45,480 nt of DNA from an uncultured Nitrososphaeraceae archaeon (lineage in GTDB: Archaea > Thermoproteota > Nitrososphaeria > Nitrososphaerales > Nitrososphaeraceae), in contig CAWGVG010000055.1 in the NCBI GenBank assembly GCA_963825865.1, positions 1 to 45,480 of the forward strand, read 5' to 3'. Numbering within the stretch: the first letter of the stretch is position 1; every line of letters begins with the position of its first letter. The notes below the pieces were generated by a model. It had not been told where the DNA came from. It made no database searches and saw nothing but the letters and a program-made list of their open reading frames with translations. Below, one piece after another: positions 1-42,214 of the stretch. The translations under genes and the position numbers were made by a program.

Positions 1-52
1 GACCGTGTGACCCACTCACACGCTGTAAACAAATTATACAACTTAGACAGAG
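1..52. repeat. GTGAC-core dispersed site, copy 1 (core + B arm, cut by window edge)
   Basis: TCACACGCTGTAAACAAATTA at 16-36 is identical to 1799-1819. It is preceded by GTGTGACC and followed by CAGAGA. Confidence 0.85.
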
Positions 53-92
53 AAAGGTAAAATAATTACTCTAAAGGAAGACCTTTCTCTCT

Positions 93-1017
93 TTATTTCT
101 TTCCTTTATTCAAAAAAGAAGACATCATTTTTTGTCTGTCTTCATGTGCAAAGCATAATGCCCAACCATAAATCTCTAACCTTAATCCCGTATCAATGTC
201 TGTATCCATTCCTTTGTTGATTAACATTTTGCTGGTTTTAACAGCAGTAAAACTATTCTTTGTAATATCTTTTGCAAAGGCAAGGCATTCATCCATTAGC
301 TTTTTGTTTAGAATTTTAGCTAGTTTACATCTGCTATTTGTTTTTCTTCTTGTTGCTCTTCTTCTTTAGAAGAACCTGTAGTGGTTGTTGCTATGGCAGT
401 AGTGGCTGCTCCTGTTGTCTGCTAGCTACTTAATTCATCTTCAGGTGTCAAACTAACTAATTTATTAACAAGTCCAATTCTTTCTGCTTCTTATGCTGTA
501 ATCATTTTACCGGTATAGATAAGTTCTTTTGTTTTTGCAAGACCAACAATTCTCGATAGTCTTTGAGTCCCTCCCCATCCTGGTGGAATACCGATTGTAG
601 CCTCTGTCTGGCCTATCTTAGCATTGCTTGACGCTATCCTAATATCACATGCCAATGCAGCTCACAACCTCCTCCCAAAGCATATCCATTAATTGCAGCA
701 ATAACAGGTTTTTCTAAATTCTCTATCTTGTTAAGTAAGGTATGAATAAAAGTTGCATACCTTTCTGCTTCAATAGGATCAATATTTACTACGTATCTGA
801 TATCTCCTCCTGCACAAAAGGATCTTTCTCCAGTACCAGTTATAATTAGAACCTTTATTTTTTCATCTGCACCAACGATGTCAATTGCGGTAGATAATTC
901 TGACATAACTTCTTTATTCAGAGCATTCAGTACTTCAGGTCTGTTGATTTTTATAATAGCAATATCTTTGTCACTATTCAAATCTAGTAGTATGTATTTC
1001 ATCATTACTGCAGACAT
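93..1017 (-). pseudogene. Enoyl-CoA hydratase/crotonase family protein, interrupted, with a low-complexity insertion
   Basis: Motifs [31 protein letters not shown], then in another frame [13 protein letters not shown], and C-terminal HEDRQKMMSSFLNK. Frameshifts near 640 and 320, in-frame stops near 492 and 424. Confidence 0.9.
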
Positions 1018-1103
1018 AAAGAAGTTTAGGCAATGGCTTTGATTTAAATATCAATCAAAAAAAGTGTTAATTCAGTATAATAGAAGGTCATCATATCCAA
1101 GTT

Positions 1104-1690
1104 TCATGTTATTTTTATATCCTTGATATTAGCAAATTCAGTTTTAAAGCAATCTAAAGTCTCATTATCAAATATACAAAATTCTATGATGTCTATTGAA
1201 CATTTCTTATTATTATTATTGTATTGTTCAAGAAACCTTTCTGACTCTTCTACAAGTATCTTTGCACATTTATCCTTAGGAAATCCAAAAATGCCAGAAC
1301 TTATCGCTGGCATAGAGATATTTTTGAACCCCTTCTCTGCAGCTAATGCCAGAGTACTTTGAACAGCTCTAAGCGAGCTTATTGTCTTCGTCACCTTCAC
1401 CCATCCTTGGGCCAACTGTATGTATTACCGCCTTACATGGTAGTTTCCCAGCTTTAGTAATCACTGCTGAACCAACCGGGACAAAGCCTCCTGCTACTAT
1501 CCTGTCGCTTTCCTCTTGAATGATTGCTCCACCTTTTCTTACTATGGCAGCTGCCAACTCCTCCACCATGTTTTAGATAAGAATTTGCAGCATTTACTAT
1601 GACATCGACATCTCTTTCTGTGATATCTCCTTTAACAAGTCTAAGGATTTTATTGTTATCTAGCTTTGCCTCATATACTATTATTACGGC
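1104..1690 (-). CDS. Macro domain (ADP-ribose binding/O-acetyl-ADP-ribose deacetylase-like) protein, frameshifted
   Basis: [37 protein letters not shown] and [12 protein letters not shown] read across three frames. Start approximate. Confidence 0.9.
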
Positions 1691-1751
1691 GATATCACCA
1701 CAGACTCATCATAAATACACATTGTCTTCATTTTTCTCAATAAAATTTTAT

Positions 1752-1832
1752 CCTCTCTCTGGGTCGGAAATAATTCTAACGTGTGACTGTGTGACTGGTC
1801 ACACGCTGTAAACAAATTACACTACAGAGAGG
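1752..1832. repeat. GTGAC-core dispersed site, copy 2 (complete A arm + core + B arm, imperfect palindrome)
   Basis: CCTCTCTCTG..GAAATAATTCTAAC GTGTGACT GTGTGACT GGTCACAC GCTGTAAACAAATTA..CAGAGAGG. Confidence 0.85.
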
Positions 1833-1909
1833 CGCGCTAAAAAAATATAATCAATTAAAATTAATCCATCTGATCAACACACATAACTAGTGCTTGGATG
1901 CGCCTCATA

Positions 1910-2970
1910 TCACTCTATAACTGCTAAAGTCCAAGGATGTTGTGAAAGATACTCATTAGGCCATTGTAGACCTTCAAGCATTTTCCATGAAATACCTGAA
2001 TCAGTAGAGCAGAATATACCACGATTGTTGATGGCATAGAATTCTCCTGCAACCTTAGGATTTTCTGCAAGAAATGAGATGAGTGTTCCACGTCGTTCAG
2101 GAAGGCCCTTTGATACAACCTTCCACTCTTCATCATTATTGTTATCAGAATCCTGAGTAGATGCCGTTCTTCTATAAACCAGTGATTCCGCATCTTCAAC
2201 AGAATATGCTTTATACGGCCACGAGGATGCAGATACAACAACGGTTTTAGGATCTCCTGAATCAACAGCAAGACCAACTAGGTAATCGTAATCATCAAGT
2301 CCTGTCACTGATCTTTTCCAGGTCTGTCCATAATCATAGCTTTCAAAATATCCATCACCTGCGAGCAGAGTATAGCCATCCGGGCATCTTTTTGTGGGTA
2401 GCTAAAGTGTGAGTATCGTATGGTCCTCTCTCTACTTTGTCTATCCAAGTTTTACCTCCATCATGACTTTGGACTAGAGCTCCAGCCTCTATAGCAGCAT
2501 ACACATAACCAGGCTTAGTTTTATCTGATTCAATCCAGCGAACATGGGAAGTCCAAGGCCTCGGAGGAAAGCTCCACGATGAAGACGATTTTAAATTATT
2601 AATGGAGCTCATTTTCTGCCAAGATTCACCTCCATCATCAGAATCTATAGAAGGCAGTAGGTTCAGTTCCCACATATACGGTATTGAAGGCTTTGTATCC
2701 TCTTTCTAGATGGCTGACTGAAACTGACATTACATCTTTACTGGATATGATTTGGTTTCCAATATTGTCCCAACTTTTTCCACCATCATCTGTCTTCCAC
2801 AGTCCTCCACCAAATGTGCCACAGTATGCACGATTTGGATTATTAGAATCAAAAGATATGCATTGTGGATGAGTTCCTTTCAAAGATTCATTGGCCTTCT
2901 TCCATCCGGTCTTGGAAGACTCAAACGTTAGAACCGCGTCCTCCATCGCTATAAAGAGCATGGTAGTCAT
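1910..2970 (-). CDS. BNR/Asp-box repeat beta-propeller protein (sialidase/glycosyl hydrolase-like fold), split by two frameshifts
   Basis: Repeated Asp-boxes TDDGGKSW, SDDGGESW, SHDGGKTW and STDSGISW, plus WSFPPRPWTSHVRWI, in three consecutive ORFs. Confidence 0.9.
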
Positions 2971-3316
2971 TGGAGTATGTTAATGAAAGGACAGATTACC
3001 TATTAAATAAATCGAGAATTCCTTTTTGGTTTTGTCTTTTATGAAATGTATTTATCTCCTCAGTCAACTGGTCGTCATTTTGCATTATCATATATACTTT
3101 AGAACTATAGCTAGCTTCAAATATCTTCTTTAATCTTTGGAATAAAACTATGATTGGAAGGATAAGCTATCCACATTGAACCCTTTGTCTTCTAACTCTA
3201 ATTGTCTCTTTTACACATTTAAGGTTGTCATGATTGTTATTATGCTCCAGCTTGAAGCTAAATTGACATAGCTGACAATAAATGCACCTGGCTAGCTATA
3301 TCAGAGTGAAACATTT

Positions 3317-3547
3317 TTATCCAAACTTAATTGATGCTACTCCCCGATTACTGATAGTAAATGCTACTTTTTTCTGCTTCTTGGTCAATGTATTCTTTAA
3401 GACATGTACCACATACCTTGAATTGTTCTTGGTCGTTGGTACTGCTACTCCACACAACTCGCAGTTGTAAATGTTGTCATTCATCAGAGGAAGGAAATGA
3501 TGATGTTCTTCCACAGATGGATTTTTCCGTTCCATTACTGCTACCAT
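3317..3547 (-). CDS. Small hypothetical protein with CxxC
   Basis: 76-aa ORF with CELC only. Confidence 0.3.
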   Translation of the reverse strand: MVAVMERKNPSVEEHHHFLPLMNDNIYNCELCGVAVPTTKNNSRYVVHVLKNTLTKKQKKVAFTISNRGVASIKFG

Positions 3548-3660
3548 TATCTCTGTTCACCTTCCTTCCCTATCCAAAGATCCACATAAAAAAACTGGAT
3601 CTATTAAGTTCTAGTTCTTTGATATGAATATATGGATCACGCTAATATGATATCTTAGCG

Positions 3661-3704
3661 TGTCTCTGAAGTTCAAAATACTTTCAGCATGTGACTGTGA
3701 CCAT
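3661..3704 (+). repeat. GTGAC-core dispersed site, copy 3 (A arm + core)
   Basis: TGTCTCTGA-N5-AAAATACTTTCAGCATGTGACTGTGACCAT; 39/44 identical to 4255-4298. Confidence 0.9.
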
Positions 3705-4020
3705 CCATGTGACCTAGTGTAATTGTTAGCTGCTCTTCTAATGGCACTTGTTCTACAATCTGTACACGTTTCTTTAAATTTTGTTCAACTTCTTTATTTC
3801 CATAATGAGTTATCGAAATTATTCCTCCCAGAGCTCTGAATTCAAGCAGTCCTTCTCCCTTCAGATATTGAGCTATGGATATTGTTAGATTACGATCAAA
3901 TCCTAATTGATCTCCAATTTCCCACATACTAACAATTTTATTCTCATTCCGGTCACTAAGTTCATGTAATTTTCTTAAAAACTCAAAGCGTTTTTTCTCT
4001 AGTTCGTCTAATGAATCCAA
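3673..4020 (-). CDS. Hypothetical winged-helix-like protein; 3' end and stop codon lie inside repeat copy 3
   Basis: MWEIGDQLGFDRNLTISIAQYLKGEGLLEF...ISITHYG fits a wHTH pattern. The last residues GHSHMLKVF are encoded by the repeat. Confidence 0.65.
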   Translation of the reverse strand: MDSLDELEKKRFEFLRKLHELSDRNENKIVSMWEIGDQLGFDRNLTISIAQYLKGEGLLEFRALGGIISITHYGNKEVEQNLKKRVQIVEQVPLEEQLTITLGHMDGHSHMLKVF

Positions 4021-4254
4021 TTAAATACAAATCCTTGGCAATTCCATATAATTTAAGGTCTGTCATACAGTTTATTTCTTCATATAACATATAGAATATG
4101 CTTAAAAAGTGATCGATCATCTTCCCTTACATAAATCACTTTTTATGTAACCAAAAAAATCTATAATATTCCTCAGCAATTTCAGATGGTCAAAGCTTAG
4201 TTAAGGAGTGTTTGAATATAAAAGATAAGGGCTGAATCTAATATAGAAAATTCA

Positions 4255-4298
4255 TGTCTCTGAGGGGTAAAATACTTTCAGCTTGTGACTGTGACCAT
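4255..4298 (+). repeat. GTGAC-core dispersed site, copy 4 (A arm + core)
   Basis: TGTCTCTGA-N5-AAAATACTTTCAGCTTGTGACTGTGACCAT, 594 bp after copy 3. Confidence 0.9.
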
Positions 4299-4450
4299 GT
4301 GATAAGCGGTGCGTTGCGATAATGATATAATGAAACTAAATCCCATTCTCTCCAATGACGCTTACAAATTTGATTATAGTCCAAAATATCATCTTAGCTA
4401 TGAATCTCAAAGAGGTAGGAGTATGCAAACAGTAGGGAGGGCAGTTTGAC

Positions 4451-4639
4451 ATGAATATTGCATATACAGAAGTACCTTTGAAGATAATTGCAAAGACATG
4501 TGGTTATGAAGAGAAGAAAAAAGTAGCATATACATTTATTGATGAATACCATAATACTTCTCTTGACAAAAAGGACATCACAATTGCTGAATTGGAAGCA
4601 TGTAAAAGGTTGTTGAAATATCCTAAAATCTGTTTATAA
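4451..4639 (+). CDS. Small hypothetical protein, probably truncated
   Basis: 62-aa ORF with natural-looking composition and purine-rich upstream sequence. Confidence 0.45.
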   Translation: MNIAYTEVPLKIIAKTCGYEEKKKVAYTFIDEYHNTSLDKKDITIAELEACKRLLKYPKICL

Positions 4640-4991
4640 TCATAGATAAAAGCGTTAGCAAAGTACGTATTTTATGTTATTTCAGGAAATAACAAAGACG
4701 ACAAATCAGAAGTCCATTACGTCAACATAGGCGAATACGGCATAGATTATACCAACAAACAATAGCTTTTTTCCTTCTTTTTTGCTAAATGGGCCACTTT
4801 TCCTATTTGTTGAATTGAATTCGCTTGACTTTAACCATTTCCCTTAACAAACAACTTTTATCTCTTTTAATAAAGGATTTATACAACCTACAATCGATAA
4901 ACAATCTACAGTAAAAACATGCAATGGAAATAGAATATTCTATAAAAGACTATTTAGTCATGCTTCAGGTGCTATATGACGAAGGTCTCAA

Positions 4992-5288
4992 ATGCATGGC
5001 GGAATCATTATGAATAACAGAGTTTGTTCTTATTGTGGATCAAATACAGGCTATGACAACGACAAAGAAAGCAATGGTTATTGGTATTCTTTAGTAACAC
5101 GAGACAATAAGACATGTCTTTATTTTCTTTGCAGTAATTGTTATGCTAAGCAAACCGATAAGAATCCAGAATGGAATCCGATTATTAATACTAAATCGCA
5201 AAATAGAAAAGAGTTAGAACAGATGCAGCTAAAAAATGCTTTATCGCCAAGAGTAGTTGCTCCCTTGACTATTGAGATTTTGACATGA
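4992..5288 (+). CDS. Small putative zinc-finger protein
   Basis: CSYC ... WY ... CSNC paired CxxC motifs. Confidence 0.5.
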   Translation: MHGGIIMNNRVCSYCGSNTGYDNDKESNGYWYSLVTRDNKTCLYFLCSNCYAKQTDKNPEWNPIINTKSQNRKELEQMQLKNALSPRVVAPLTIEILT

Positions 5289-5866
5289 TTACCGCTTATT
5301 CATGGGCAGCAGGATTATTATTTCAATAATAGAATGACATTTTGTATTTGTTATGTATACCAATGATATGATAGCAGGGACTTTGTTCCAGAGAATGTTT
5401 TGGTAGAGGTTTCCAAGGATTTTCTGTTGCACGATTGTTTTCTTTGTATCTATATAGATATTGCGGAATCCAACAATGGTGTAAGCTAATTCTTCTATTT
5501 TTTGTTCCAAAGTCCTAAGTGTTGGTGACGGTTGTTGAGGTTTTCATTTACGTTAGTCATTAACAGTTTTATAAATTCTGCAATAAAAAGGAATGGACCT
5601 GCATTTTAGATTCCATTGTATACGTAATCGTTCAATCTTATGTGTTTGAATTTATTACCATTACGGCATTGAAAAAATGCTCTATATAGGTACTTGCAGG
5701 TGGATATATCTATATATCTAACTCTAGTATTGCATTTTGTAACTCTGTTATTGTGTTACCATGATAATAACCTCTGCTACCATTATCCCTTTTGACACAT
5801 CCTTACTTGAATGATGAATATTACTAAATTTACAAAAAATATGCTTTAAAAAGTAATTCATTGTCA

Positions 5867-6124
5867 GCTGTATACTCCCTTTGTTAGTATCATATATTAC
5901 AATAGAAATATTACTCAGGGTTTCAACCCCAACCTTAGTACTCCAAAGACCACTCTTATGGAGTATTCAGCAAAAGGAGGCAATAAATCTAAAGCCAAAG
6001 TTATAAGTATTACATCCTGGATGTGAGATCAGTAAACGCTGTTTGTAAGAGATTAAAGAAAGGAGAGGAGAAGAGTTGATAATGTAGCATATGAACAACA
6101 CAAGGTAGCGGCCTGGCTCTCCTT
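5867..6124. ncRNA. Candidate structured RNA/element-end region upstream of tnpB remnant
   Basis: GCTGTATACTCC (5867-5878) pairs with GGAGTATTCAGC (5960-5971). Inner TACTCCA/TGGAGTA stem; AAGGAGAG/CTCTCCTT stem (6060-6124) followed by a T run. Confidence 0.3.
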
Positions 6125-6145
6125 TTTTTCTTTCGAGTACAACAA

Positions 6146-6775
6146 TTGCAAAAAGATAACAGACGACAGCAAAACAAAACTATCTTTGATAGAATCAGAT
6201 TATTCGAATTATCAAACATACTTGCAATCTGGATGCAAAAATGCAGAAGAAATGAATCTATATTCAGTCATAAAGCAGCAAGCAAAATGTGTCTTTAAAC
6301 GAGTTAAAGAATAACCAAAACCAAAGAAACAGTATCCGCTAGTCTTAAGGCGTGACCTGTGGACATACAGAAAGATAGCAAATTTCGATATGTATACTGG
6401 ATGAAGGTTCCCGTTTATCCAAAATCGATTAATGTAAGAATACAAGCATCATGCAAATATGACCTGAGTAGCAAAGAATACTCCATAAGAGAAAGCAAGA
6501 TAGTGAAAATACAAAACGATTGGTATATCTATGCGACAATTGAGAAGCAAGAACAGCAAACTAACTTCTTAATCGATAATACCATTGCTGATAATGTCTT
6601 AGCAATTGACCTAGGTTGCAAGCATATCGCTGTAACAGTTAATACGGCAAACACAATGCCAAATTTCTATGGCGGTAGTTTAAGGCAGATGCGAGGTTTT
6701 CATTTGGCTAAGAAGGAAGTTAGGATAGAAGAAAGCAATCTACCAAGATAAGAATAGGTTATAAGAAACAAGTGG
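6146..6775 (+). pseudogene. tnpB: IS200/IS605-family TnpB-like (Cas12f-like) nuclease remnant, 3'-truncated
   Basis: NLYSVIKQQAK..*..KQYPLVLRRD, then WMKVPV, DWYIYATIE, RuvC-I VLAIDLG and a bridge-helix-like WLRRKLG. RuvC-II/III and Zn finger absent; stop and frameshifts present. Confidence 0.8.
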
Positions 6776-7097
6776 ATCTTTATCATTATGCATCTATTGC
6801 AGACTATATGTGAACAATATCTCCTGCTGACAAGCCCAAAAAGATTAACATCTTTATGACTCATCCAGACGGTAAACTTGTCCTTGGAGGTACAGCAGAA
6901 TTAGAAGTCAATAACTCTAAATTTTCGATCCGATCTATTTCTCAAGTAGGTATGTTTCCAGTTCTAGTCGAACGAACTGTTAAAGATAATAAATTAGAAG
7001 TAACAAGTGTACAACTCTCCGCAATCATACAGAATAGAAATCAACCCATTGAACTAGATTGAGAAATATCATTCTATTGTAAATAAAATTTCTTATA

Positions 7098-7142
7098 TGT
7101 ATCTGAGTGGCAGTCAAAATACTTTCAGCGTGTGACTGGTCA
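7098..7142 (+). repeat. GTGAC-core dispersed site, copy 5 (A arm + core)
   Basis: TGTATCTGA-N9-AAAATACTTTCAGCGTGTGACTGGTCA. Confidence 0.85.
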
Positions 7143-7235
7143 TAGCCTATGCCTTAATAAAAGAGACATCATATTTGAAGAATTGATGATGACGACGAGG
7201 AAAGCGAGAATGAACTGTAACTTACCTTCTATCTA

Positions 7236-7904
7236 TTGATTTTCAATAAGCACTTCTGGTTTGACTCGCGCAAGTATTCCAGCCGAAATGTCTACAAAGC
7301 AATTGGTATGGAAAAAGAAATAGAAGTAGGTGTATCATATTACAGATGTTACAAATTTATCAGATCTGTCATGGAGAGACTAATATCATCATCTTCTACG
7401 TTAGGTGGTGTTAAACTTAGGCTGCCTGGAAGACCACCACGACGTAGAGGATTGAAACCTTGGAGAGGAAGAGGTACCTATGAAAAGGAATATCCAATGA
7501 TAACATGTATACATCAGAGAGGAAGAATGACATACTTTGATGTTCGTATAAAACATTCTCTGATCAGTAATATTTGTAGATCAGTACATCGTCATTCCAA
7601 AGTATACACAGATGAGTATCTGGGTTACAGGAATTTGAAAGAATATGGATTTGTACATAAACAAGTTTGTCATTATCATGTAAAGAATATGCAAGAGGAG
7701 TTGTACACGTAAACAATTGTGAATGTAGAAGCAATCTTTACAAGATATGGATCAGAAAATTCATGGGTGTCAATAAACACAATCTGCAGTCATATACAAA
7801 GACCTTCCAGTTTATTCATAATATCAGAAAAGATGGTATAAGAGACAAGTTGTTCAAAGCTGTTCTTAATTGTCACTAGCTGAAACATTCACTGAATAAG
7901 AGCG
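7236..7904 (+). mobile_element. IS1595-family transposase remnant with right terminal repeat; left end missing
   Basis: SKVYTDEYLGY, HKQVCH, EYARGVVHVNNCECRSNL..RKFMGVNKHNL. The element ends AAGAGCG (7898-7904), the reverse complement of the CGCTCTT end of ISH4-group IS1595. Confidence 0.85.
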
Positions 7905-8280
7905 TATTAAATAACTAAGATAACACAAAGATCTACTTCTATATATCTAAATCTTATACTCAGATGCTACTTCATTGTGTAGTACGTTTCCATTACACAA
8001 TGATGATCTATTACGGGTTTCTATAGAAAAGCAAGAACAATCCCATGAAAAAATAATTGAAAATATCCTAAAGATTATCAGTGACCTTACAGCCCAAGAT
8101 ATCTCTTGAACTTACTTTTGTTCTTATATGAACTTTGAAAGCAGATAGCCTTCATACTCTTTCTTATATATGATAATGACAGTAATAACAAAAATTCAAA
8201 CTCCAAAGGCTCACTTGTCATCGCACAAACACATCATCGCTTGATCAAAGCTTCTTTTTTAACTAAAAATACATACATAT

Positions 8281-8748
8281 ATGTCAACTACTGCTAGTCA
8301 AAAGACAATGTTCTCCAAAATACTAATTGCAATAGATGGCTCTGATGCGTCAATGGATGCAGCAGATTATGCTGTATCTATATCTGAACAATATAATGCA
8401 GAACTTCTTTATGCTTTGCATGTTATACACCCAGCTGACGCTGATTTATTTGGATCAACTGGAGAAATGACAACAGCAGCTTACAATACAATAGACATGA
8501 ACAAAGAAGCTCAGAAATATTTGGATAAAGTTAAACTCAAAGCAAATCAAAAGAATATTCAGATAAAATCAGAAATTATTGCTTCTACAAATACAGCAGG
8601 AGGTATAGTAGATTATGCTGAGGATAAAGACGTTGATCTGATCATTATTGGAACAAGAGGAAAATCAGGTTTCAAGAAAATACTACTTGGAAGTGTTGCT
8701 TATAAAGTAGTAACTTATGCACATTGTCCTGTAATGGTAGTGAAATAG
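8281..8748 (+). CDS. Universal stress protein (UspA family)
   Basis: KILIAIDGSDAS ... DLIIIGTRGKSGFKKILLGSVAYKVVTYAHCPVMVV; intact ORF. Confidence 0.95.
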   Translation: MSTTASQKTMFSKILIAIDGSDASMDAADYAVSISEQYNAELLYALHVIHPADADLFGSTGEMTTAAYNTIDMNKEAQKYLDKVKLKANQKNIQIKSEIIASTNTAGGIVDYAEDKDVDLIIIGTRGKSGFKKILLGSVAYKVVTYAHCPVMVVK

Positions 8749-8834
8749 TTATTTTACTTCAAACAAACCTTTCAGATAACAAAATCAAAAAACAATAATT
8801 ACAATTTTTGGTTTTAGATTCATTCATTAGACAA

Positions 8835-9170
8835 TCGCGCGCGATAAAGCTTGTATTTTTTCTCTCTTTTCATCTGACTGCTGTGCAGCATTACATGCCT
8901 CTCTTAATATTGCTGTGAAGCCAACAAGACATTTCTCGTACTCTTCTGGCAGCCTTTCGTCTATGTACCTTCTGATATTGGACTTTGCTTGCTCGCCTTA
9001 GATAGGATAAGTCGCTATTAACAGTGCCACTTGACACCAGCAGGATCTGTGCAATCTCCCTCTGGCTATGTCCCTGGCTCGCTTAGCTCCTGGACTTTAT
9101 TCCTCCGCCAATCAATTCTACTGCTTTCTTTTTCCTGTTTTTGTTTGCGTTCAATTTGCAGGCTCAAATG
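8835..9170 (-). pseudogene. HTH protein remnant (possible terminase small subunit-like family)
   Basis: Manual translation across frameshifts: IDWRRNKVQELS / QGHSQREIAQILLVSSGTVNSDLSYLR / QAKSNIRRYIDERLPEEYEKCLVGFTAILREA. Not in the ORF track. Confidence 0.7.
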
Positions 9171-41290: not shown

Positions 41291-42214
41291 CTAATTTGAT
41301 AATTTTAGCTTGCTTTTTAAATCCTTCAATCTGTTCCTGAGAGTCACTTCTGTTACTCCTGCTGCTTGTGCAATATCATTTTGAGTTATATTTTCGCCTA
41401 TATTTATAGATGATAAGTAAAGAATAGTAGCTGCAAATCCCATTGGATTTTTTCCAGCAGATAATAATATTTCATCTTTTCTAACTTCATTCATTATACT
41501 TATTGCCTGACGTTTCGTTTTTTCGCTTAGATTAGCTTTGTTTGCAACTTTGGCAATACACTTCATTTGATCGACTAATGGAACTTTAAGGTCAAGTTCG
41601 ATAAGCAGTAATCTATATGCTTTTGCTAAATGTTTGCGTTTGATGTTACTAGCTGCCGCAATATCTCTTAATGTTCTTGGAATTTCCATTTCTCTACATG
41701 CAATATATGCAGAAGCAGCCAATAATGCATTTATTGATCTTCCTCTTACTAATCCTCTTCTTTGAGCTTTTCTATATATGTATGCTGTTTTCTCAACTAC
41801 TGCATCTGGCAATGCAAGTTTATCGCTCAATACATCAAGTTCATTGAAAGCTTGCATAAGATTTATAGCAGTAGCAGTACGACTCTGTGTTCTAAAATCC
41901 CATGCTCTTAAGCTTTTTATTGTAGAGTATGTGGATGCATCTAGTTTGTGTCCTGCTCCATCTTTGTCAGTCCTTCCAATTATAGTATATAATCCCCTAT
42001 CATATCTTGCTAGAGAAGTAGGAGCTCCTGTTCTGCATCTATCATTTACTTCTTCTGCACTAAAAGCACGCCATTCTGGTCTGCTCATATCCTGCACTTT
42101 GTCTGAAATTACTATGCCACAATTACTACAAATGATTTCTCCAGATTCAGGATCTATAATGACTGTCTTACCTTTCGCTTTTCCACATATTGAACATACA
42201 ATCAAAGTTTGCAT
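41291..42214 (-). CDS. tfb: Transcription initiation factor IIB
   Basis: Zn ribbon (CSIC...GEIICSNCG), PEWRAF, GLVRGRS, two cyclin repeats, GVTEVTLRNR; intact. Confidence 0.97.
   Translation of the reverse strand: MQTLIVCSICGKAKGKTVIIDPESGEIICSNCGIVISDKVQDMSRPEWRAFSAEEVNDRCRTGAPTSLARYDRGLYTIIGRTDKDGAGHKLDASTYSTIKSLRAWDFRTQSRTATAINLMQAFNELDVLSDKLALPDAVVEKTAYIYRKAQRRGLVRGRSINALLAASAYIACREMEIPRTLRDIAAASNIKRKHLAKAYRLLLIELDLKVPLVDQMKCIAKVANKANLSEKTKRQAISIMNEVRKDEILLSAGKNPMGFAATILYLSSINIGENITQNDIAQAAGVTEVTLRNRLKDLKSKLKLSN

Follow-up and report, generated by a model that had tools for sequence, protein, structure and literature searches.

A directional GTGAC-box palindrome at gene-module boundaries in Nitrososphaeraceae, a candidate recombination site

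The question raised by the left end of contig C55 (CAWGVG010000055.1, assembly GCA_963825865.1) of an uncultured Nitrososphaeraceae archaeon is what a two-armed motif with a GTGAC core, repeated at the borders of successive gene modules, is doing there. The window, i.e., the whole stretch of DNA that was analysed, is this complete contig of 45,480 bp, which begins inside the first copy of the motif; the source genome (G000) comprises 4.98 Mb in 62 contigs, with 35% GC and 82% completeness. The original prediction, made from the letters of the window, described five related junctions bounding tandem modules, and took them for recombination sites or element ends used in trans. We propose that the motif serves as the directional recombination site in a system of cassette type, which acts in trans and is confined to the Nitrososphaeraceae, and we give this reading a probability of roughly 0.4.

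The five junctions and the anatomy of the site

The copies of the motif in the window are the following:
1-54, + strand: site 1, truncated at the contig start; core box GTGTGAC at 5-11, B arm at 16-36, outer CAGAGA at 47-52
1747-1837, + strand: site 2, the sole whole site in the window; A arm at 1751-1787, GTGTGAC twice, B arm at 1799-1819, outer CAGAGAGG reaching 1832
3594-3717, + strand: site 3, a left half; "alpha" extension at 3594-3657, A arm at 3658-3695 (E 5.9e-7 with the arm model), extra boxes TGTGAC..CATGTGACCTAG to 3717; without B arm
4251-4305, + strand: site 4, a left half; A arm at 4251-4289 plus TGTGACCATGTGA; without B arm (E 3.6e-7)
7100-7142, + strand: site 5, a left half; A arm at 7100-7136 plus TGGTCA, the first bases of a B arm, then broken off (E 7.7e-6)

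Arm A was matched with 0-1 mismatch at 3675-3695, 4269-4289 and 7116-7136, and arm B exactly at 16-36 and 1799-1819; in shuffled sequence no match to either arm was obtained (100 shuffles in the case of arm A). The A arm at 1751-1787 is more diverged, i.e., it was missed at up to 3 mismatches and was recovered by an arm hidden Markov model (HMM; E 0.0011). With the covariance model R1 the whole site at 1747-1837 scored 90.4 bits (E 4e-19), and site 1, with its 5′ end cut, scored 40 bits over model positions 39-91; the next-best R1 matches in the window (E 0.1-0.2) were half sites already known. The family of sites is real, beyond chance, and the five predicted junctions are upheld by the arm matches, the empty shuffles, the arm HMM and R1. 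The claim that the other 38 kb hold no further copy also stood, the best extra arm-HMM match having an E-value of 7, and the sizes of the modules (about 1.8, 1.9, 0.6 and 2.8 kb) and the minus-strand open reading frames (ORFs) of the first three were as claimed.

The site is an asymmetric nested palindrome of about 90-105 bp, of which arms A and B are the two halves. Arm A consists of CTCTCTGGG, AAAATACTTTCAAC and GTGTGAC; the core spans 9 to about 30 nt and carries 0-3 further GTGAC/GTCAC boxes; arm B consists of GTCACAYGCTGTAAACAAAT, a few bases, and then CCCAGAGAGGCAC. The innermost GTGAC and GTCAC boxes lie 2-3 bp apart in most composites. The outer and inner boxes (CTCTCTG..GTGTGAC / GTCACAC..CAGAGAG) are common to both arms and the 14 nt between them are consistently different, an asymmetry that persists throughout an alignment of 82 sites drawn from metagenomes and several genera. 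Outward, the palindrome reaches TGCC..GGCA; on both sides it is bordered by TA and by A-runs, which lie on the same strand, and a conserved TATA-like stretch rich in A/T (CTAAAAAATATAAT) comes after the B arm. In the original prediction A and B were separate ends that merely met at 1752-1832. This part had to be given up: the whole A-core-B unit is the normal state (15 of the 32 sites in G000 and nearly all in relatives), and the A-only sites are the exceptions.

The palindrome might in principle be the gene for a small structured RNA. Single copies are predicted to fold into stable nested hairpins, and site 2, taken as single-stranded DNA, gave a z-score of -3.7 on both strands. Yet both strands fold equally well, the 82-site alignment revealed no consensus fold and no covariation or compensatory change, and the Rfam covariance models gave only a chance miRNA match, far below threshold and off the site. 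The variable core length and the many half sites also fit a structured RNA badly, and an RNA gene is very improbable.

Two look-alikes in G000 (..GGTTAAAAATACTTTCAACC.., at C47:5798-5818 and C25:11435-11455) share the arm-A word AAAATACTTTCAAC and are without a GTGAC box; one of them lies 2.7 kb from an integrase gene.

Distribution, polarity and shuffling of flanks

Scanned as a profile through the genome and its relatives, the motif proved to be a family that is not unique to this contig. Arm HMMs at E<=0.01 detected 25 A arms and 22 B arms in G000, which combine into 15 whole, 10 A-only and 7 B-only sites. Among the sampled Nitrososphaeraceae, R1 found sites in 28 of 151 genomes and in 9 of 18 genera, with 1-23 copies per genome; one of the positive genomes, G092, has a single weak match. 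The commonest genera were g13 (11 of 21 genomes), g17 (6 of 7) and g18 (3 of 4), and R1 had no match at E<=1e-4 in the 127 genomes that represented 19 further families of the order. A search with the 20-nt B core retrieved 38 soil metagenome contigs and no viral contig of IMG/VR. The phage and plasmid collections gave one chance 33-nt match and none, respectively. Two copies in G000 (C43:9287-9386 and C56:33521-33620) are identical in site and flanks, and may represent a single locus that was assembled twice, or else a duplication of very recent date.

The sites are intergenic: all but one of 62 sites in relatives, and every one of the 34 on metagenome contigs, are situated outside long ORFs, in the space between ORFs. 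Their polarity is fixed, i.e., all 15 whole sites in G000 read A then B, and never A-A′ or B′-B. Neighbouring sites tend strongly to point the same way (14 pairs the same and none opposite in G000, 20 and 2 in relatives, 6 and 1 on metagenome contigs, counting L163 and leaving out its duplicate L166), so that 40 of 43 pooled pairs are co-oriented; the p-values overstate the significance of these figures, since the sites within one array are not independent. A link with the direction of replication was tried and dropped, the GC skew around sites being positive on 10 of 20 contigs.

Arrays of sites are common: G093 has 7 within 3.4 kb, G157 has 8 within 4 kb and G045 has 3 within 3 kb, and metagenome contig L149 carries 3. 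Clusters of at least two co-oriented sites less than 4 kb apart, with genes between them, were found in the window, on C49, in G093, G157 and G045, and on L149, and in some tight runs the non-coding DNA from one site to the next measures just 55-110 bp. The cargo between sites is of accessory type (GNAT, glyoxalase, MFS, hydrolases, methyltransferase, PNPOx, GmrSD and helicase-nuclease), and some modules contain two genes or a leader.

The intergenic position raises the alternative that the unit is a transcription boundary, i.e., a terminator hairpin plus a promoter, and that modules are swapped by ordinary recombination between such boundaries. Genes present their 3′ end to the A side in 36 cases and their 5′ end in 14, the TATA-like stretch follows B, a leader and gene start follow it in 8 loci of G000, and the single strand is predicted to form a hairpin. 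The B side is unbiased (19 vs 17), however, and the A-runs lie on the same strand on both sides, so that genes reading into the A arm meet A-tracts rather than U-tracts. Furthermore, the missing consensus fold, covariation and Rfam match speak against this alternative, a distribution as patchy as 28 of 151 genomes would be odd for a host regulatory signal, and what copies have in common, a 21-nt core with 59% mean column identity, is too short for ordinary homologous recombination. We consider this alternative unlikely.

The flanks of the sites are shuffled. The left flanks form a few families, each marked by a particular A-arm variant, and the right flanks form others, with free combination between the two sets. 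Where two copies agree at 95-99% in the right flank, their left flanks are unrelated; where they agree at 80-92% in the left flank, the A arm is retained and the right flanks are unrelated. Two kinds of right module can be told apart. The module of a gene for a helix-turn-helix (HTH)/coiled-coil protein starts after the whole palindrome, because the outer part of B has diverged among its copies (41-71%) despite a 95-99% identical right flank, whereas the enoyl-CoA hydratase (ECH) module includes the B arm and starts exactly there in three contexts. C1:10908 and C26 have in common a flank, the A arm and 20 nt of core to ..CTGG, after which a B arm is found only in C26. A Macro gene plus site is common to G000, G045 and G067, and the homology stops at the site; in relatives, the entire palindrome is carried by left modules. 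The original prediction had asked whether the same modules occur in other orders or at other loci, and they do recur in other contexts: a 1.8-kb site-bounded module of G045 reappears in G056 with a different right neighbour, and that neighbour is found alone in G016.

A duplicated region of G056 was informative as well. One copy carries a single site and the other 5.4 kb extra, and the duplicates are 99.5% identical up to B position 21, where the difference starts. Within the extra DNA the A arm is repeated, and two further sites, an HTH gene and an IS630-type transposase are among its other contents. On metagenome contig L171, an A-core-GTCACATGCT joint is followed after 460 bp by a full B arm. 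Breakpoints were located at the core/B border, past position 9 or 21 of B, or beyond the outer CAGAG box; as to whether synteny breaks exactly at the GTGAC core, a test called for in the original prediction, flanks change in or beside the core and B arm. Metagenome contigs of relatives, with 90% likeness to the window, show joints of 3695 plus CATGTGACCTA plus 1798 (X8) and of 7099 to 16 (X6), and loose ends at 1830 and 7141; the X8 and X6 joints could be other sites of the family and are no evidence of circles. No sequencing run with more than 26% of the words of the window was found in a read search, and hunts for an empty site in two comparisons yielded none, but shuffled modules or no collinear region instead.

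The flank differences between copies and between genomes fit recombination joints used in trans, and this half of the predicted role is supported. The other half, in which B and A would be the inverted-repeat ends of non-autonomous cargo transposons (B...cargo...A) and the A-B composites abutted ends, has fared poorly. Tandem copies of the insertion sequences (IS) IS30, IS21 and IS911 give abutted junctions of right and left inverted repeats, and the site resembles these in its two inverted, end-like arms 2-3 bp apart. The arms are indeed imperfect inverted copies of one another, solo A and solo B ends occur, and the exact start of the ECH module at the B arm is what such a transposon would give. 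Nevertheless, no examined B...A interval encodes a transposase. If ends abutted randomly, the chance of 15 of 15 composites reading A then B would be about 3e-5; several right modules begin only past the whole palindrome; whole left modules in relatives carry the entire palindrome, which travels as one unit with the neighbouring module; and the succession in the window of three A ends that lack a B is out of keeping with it. We regard transposon ends as quite improbable.

Candidate enzymes and rival systems

In the mechanism that we consider for a recombination site, short gene modules would lie between co-oriented sites, breakage and rejoining of the DNA would take place within or next to the core and B arm, and modules would be gained, lost, copied and reshuffled by a recombinase acting in trans. 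Half sites 3-5 would be joints with non-site DNA or decayed sites, site 5 being cut by an IS fragment. We infer that the exchange is site-specific and carried out by an enzyme, and that DNA and not RNA is the active form.

Several observations weigh against this reading. The breakpoints cluster in or beside the core and B arm and not at one base, and the 5.4-kb difference in G056 has no site at its right end, where 14 nt are missing. The three opposite pairs mean that co-orientation is not absolute, and the direction of genes relative to the site is a tendency only, which is reversed in the window. The A-rich direct repeats and TA beside the palindrome would also suit a transposed element. Among the hand-picked families tested, no recombinase was found adjacent to the sites or co-distributed with them. 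None of the 22 PF00589 (tyrosine recombinase) matches in G000 is next to a site. A divergent integrase family with many copies was seen near sites, at a distance of 2-4 kb, at no more than 3 of the 41 loci in relatives, and it is present in 113 of 151 genomes; its distribution is therefore uninformative, and it is not co-distributed with the sites. IntI (TIGR02249) exceeded the cut-off in none of the five site-rich genomes (best 38 bits vs a cut-off of 265), Y1/RAYT is missing from two of them and IS1595 from three.

As to the window, PF00589 had no match on C55, and the only nearby candidates were a transposase fragment at 6359-6751 and an IS1595-like fragment at 7236-7739, which bears out the statement that no intact recombinase is adjacent. 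Ends of the IS200/IS605 type (TnpA/TnpB) were rejected: the only transposase fragment lies 350 bp from site 5, there is none at the other sites, and Y1 is lacking. For PF01797 (Y1), no match was obtained in G016 and G067 and only fragments in G000 and G093, and the single full copy, in G056, is on a contig (C13) without an R1 site. IS1595 is also absent from genus g17.

The divergent tyrosine recombinase family has copies at C3:202883-203941, C15:120459-121391, C62:61067-62119 and about 20 more places in G000, with homology confined to the gene itself. An apparent integrase-only insertion in G056 turned out to be a 5′ deletion of the other copy.

The commonest neighbour of the sites is a protein of 389 aa that combines two HTH motifs at its N terminus with a long coiled coil, encoded in G000 at:
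C36:27733-28899, - strand: HTH/coiled-coil gene (also at C62:43870-45018 and C48:57920-58957)

This gene directly follows 8 B arms in G000, after a conserved leader with about seven GATAACAG repeats, and at 11 loci in relatives a homologue is located no more than 5 kb away from a site. The protein occurs in 97 of 151 genomes of the family, many of them without sites; R1 sites were not found upstream of its 19 best homologues in other genomes, and the copies are often pseudogenes and often located on short contigs. As the enzyme it was rejected: the AlphaFold2 model (pLDDT 71, pTM 0.31) is all-helical and has no catalytic fold. Foldseek returned nothing at E<=0.001 with this model, its weak resemblance to mariner/Tc3 end-binding domains (E 0.07-0.8) being not significant, and Pfam and PHROG gave only weak HTH matches, with no Pfam family. 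The gene behaves like a selfish or plasmid-type DNA-binding gene, and we take it for a separate multi-copy gene that tends to adjoin sites and whose product may bind them.

These data bear on the rival in which the palindrome of about 100 bp is a selfish element of the type of miniature inverted-repeat transposable elements (MITEs) or REPINs, which transposes and whose copies are passive breakpoints for ectopic or hairpin-induced recombination. Such an element would be multi-copy, patchy among genera and located at contig ends, as the sites are; it would account for the tight runs with short non-coding linkers and for the variable breakpoints, and the TGCC..GGCA limits with TA and A-runs on both sides resemble target duplications. 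IS630-type transposases are abundant in all five site-rich genomes (38 DDE_3 matches in G000 and 53 in G093), and the weak likeness of the HTH/coiled-coil neighbour to mariner/Tc3 domains points the same way at its non-significant E-values. On the other hand, the inverted repeats of the one IS630-type element of G000 that was examined are unrelated to arms A/B, which speaks against this element as the parent, and Y1/RAYT is absent from two of the five genomes. Free insertion of a symmetric element would not be expected to give co-oriented neighbours; free transposition should yield both orientations, and the polarity is fixed. The flanking A-rich direct repeats and TA are nearly identical beside most copies and may belong to the element rather than to its targets, no empty site came to light in the two comparisons, and the copy number is low. 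We hold the selfish palindrome to be somewhat unlikely, though the most probable of the rivals. The IS630-type element at G000:C18:59697-60808 (L125:916-2027) is 1.1 kb long, with inverted repeats of about 20 bp flanked by TA.

The site can also be set beside known repeats. In T4-type phages, promoter-early stem-loops (PeSL) form the boundaries of mobile gene cassettes, and they are similar in that a repeated hairpin with an A/T-rich, promoter-like stretch stands at module boundaries where modules are swapped; they differ in that the present genome is a cellular archaeal one without a viral-contig match, and in that the arm sequence is conserved across genera. Repetitive extragenic palindromes (REP), bacterial interspersed mosaic elements (BIME) and REPINs are mobilised by RAYT transposases. 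The intergenic palindromic doublets, the clustered runs with short linkers and the recombination hot spots are shared with these elements, whereas RAYT/Y1 is missing here from two of the five site-rich genomes, there are tens and not hundreds of copies, and neighbours are co-oriented and not alternating.

The closest comparison is with the attC sites of integrons, in chromosomal arrays and in clusters of attC sites without an integrase (CALIN), the archaeal integrons of Ghaly et al. (2022, PMC9668308) being among them. The likeness includes an imperfect nested palindrome of comparable length whose centre varies and whose asymmetry is conserved, short accessory-gene modules between sites, a site that tends to follow a gene, and the frequent absence of an integrase nearby. 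The differences concern the boxes (those of the 82 sites, and not RYYYAAC/GTTRRRY, as the original prediction had noted), the lack of an IntI over the cut-off, breakpoints that are not at a fixed position, and cargo genes that run in either direction, some in modules with their own leader. The system is not an integron: it is attC-like in several respects and fails the defining sequence and integrase tests.

Contents of the window and meaning for the family

The other features of the window that adjoin the sites are the following:
93-1017, - strand: enoyl-CoA hydratase pseudogene, in three frame pieces (93-296, 491-655 and 634-1017); ECH_1 E 9e-29 and 4e-13
1104-1569, - strand: Macro-domain pseudogene, in two frame pieces; Macro E 2.6e-14 and 1.9e-9
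1838-1900, + strand: the conserved leader, truncated here, which at other loci connects the B arm with the HTH/coiled-coil gene
1910-2970, - strand: broken gene, weakly BNR/sortilin-like, in three ORF pieces; Sortilin-Vps10 E 0.0016, below the cut-off
3673-4020, - strand: 115-aa ORF without a family match, whose 3′ end runs into site 3
5604-5930, in module 4: dispersed non-coding repeat of about 300 bp, with 18 other places in the genome at 72-92% identity
6359-6751, + strand: transposase fragment (phrog_506 transposase, E 5.5e-8; no Pfam match), judged by eye to be a TnpB/OrfB-like N-terminal part, 350 bp from site 5
7141-7923, + strand: IS1595-like fragment plus dispersed repeat (DDE_Tnp_IS1595 E 1.6e-5; the IS1595-like fragment at 7236-7739), which cuts site 5

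The dispersed repeat that interrupts site 5 starts at 7141, the position at which the metagenome contigs diverge from the window. The tandem stacking of unrelated cargo claimed at the outset is a fair description of the region, with the qualification that modules 1 and 2 consist of broken genes and that the cargo of the window is mostly pseudogenes and IS debris. The neighbouring hydratase, Macro and BNR-like genes (93-2970) are each split by frame breaks, which reflect either gene decay in duplicated modules or a local assembly error; the hydratase copy on C48, 97% identical, is a single open frame of 320 aa, and the BNR/sortilin-like gene has paralogues on C60 and C49. Farther along, a universal-stress-protein gene (8281-8748) lies inside a segment (8241-8998) that is repeated on at least 4 other contigs at 93-96% identity and on dozens more at lower identity. 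Extra TFIIB paralogues were noted at 41291-42214 (- strand) of the window and at L136:2271-3416, on a metagenome contig, where the gene adjoins a site.

No description of this motif was found in the published literature. According to a 2019 survey of thaumarchaeal mobile elements (PMC6563490), neither integrons nor transposons with cargo had been observed in any archaea, the thaumarchaea among them, and the archaeal integrons described in 2022 use classical attC sites (PMC9668308). The motif is not mentioned in the consulted passages of either paper, nor are the Nitrososphaeraceae in the main text of PMC9668308.

The Nitrososphaeraceae are major soil nitrifiers, and little is known of how they gain accessory genes. 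A bolder version of the recombination-site reading, which we consider doubtful, is that soil ammonia-oxidising archaea have a gene-cassette system of their own, unrelated to integrons, in which a directional GTGAC-box site of about 90 bp and a recombinase acting in trans would allow accessory genes to be stacked, copied and exchanged, both within a genus and between genera; its enzyme could come from the divergent family of multi-copy tyrosine recombinases, and the HTH/coiled-coil protein could be the site-binding partner. A lineage-specific boundary site with module exchange would mark the variable gene pool of these archaea. If the exchange is driven by an enzyme, it would represent a second, independent invention of cassette recombination, and should the palindrome be no more than a repeat of selfish or regulatory nature, it would still explain many assembly breaks and rearrangements in these genomes.

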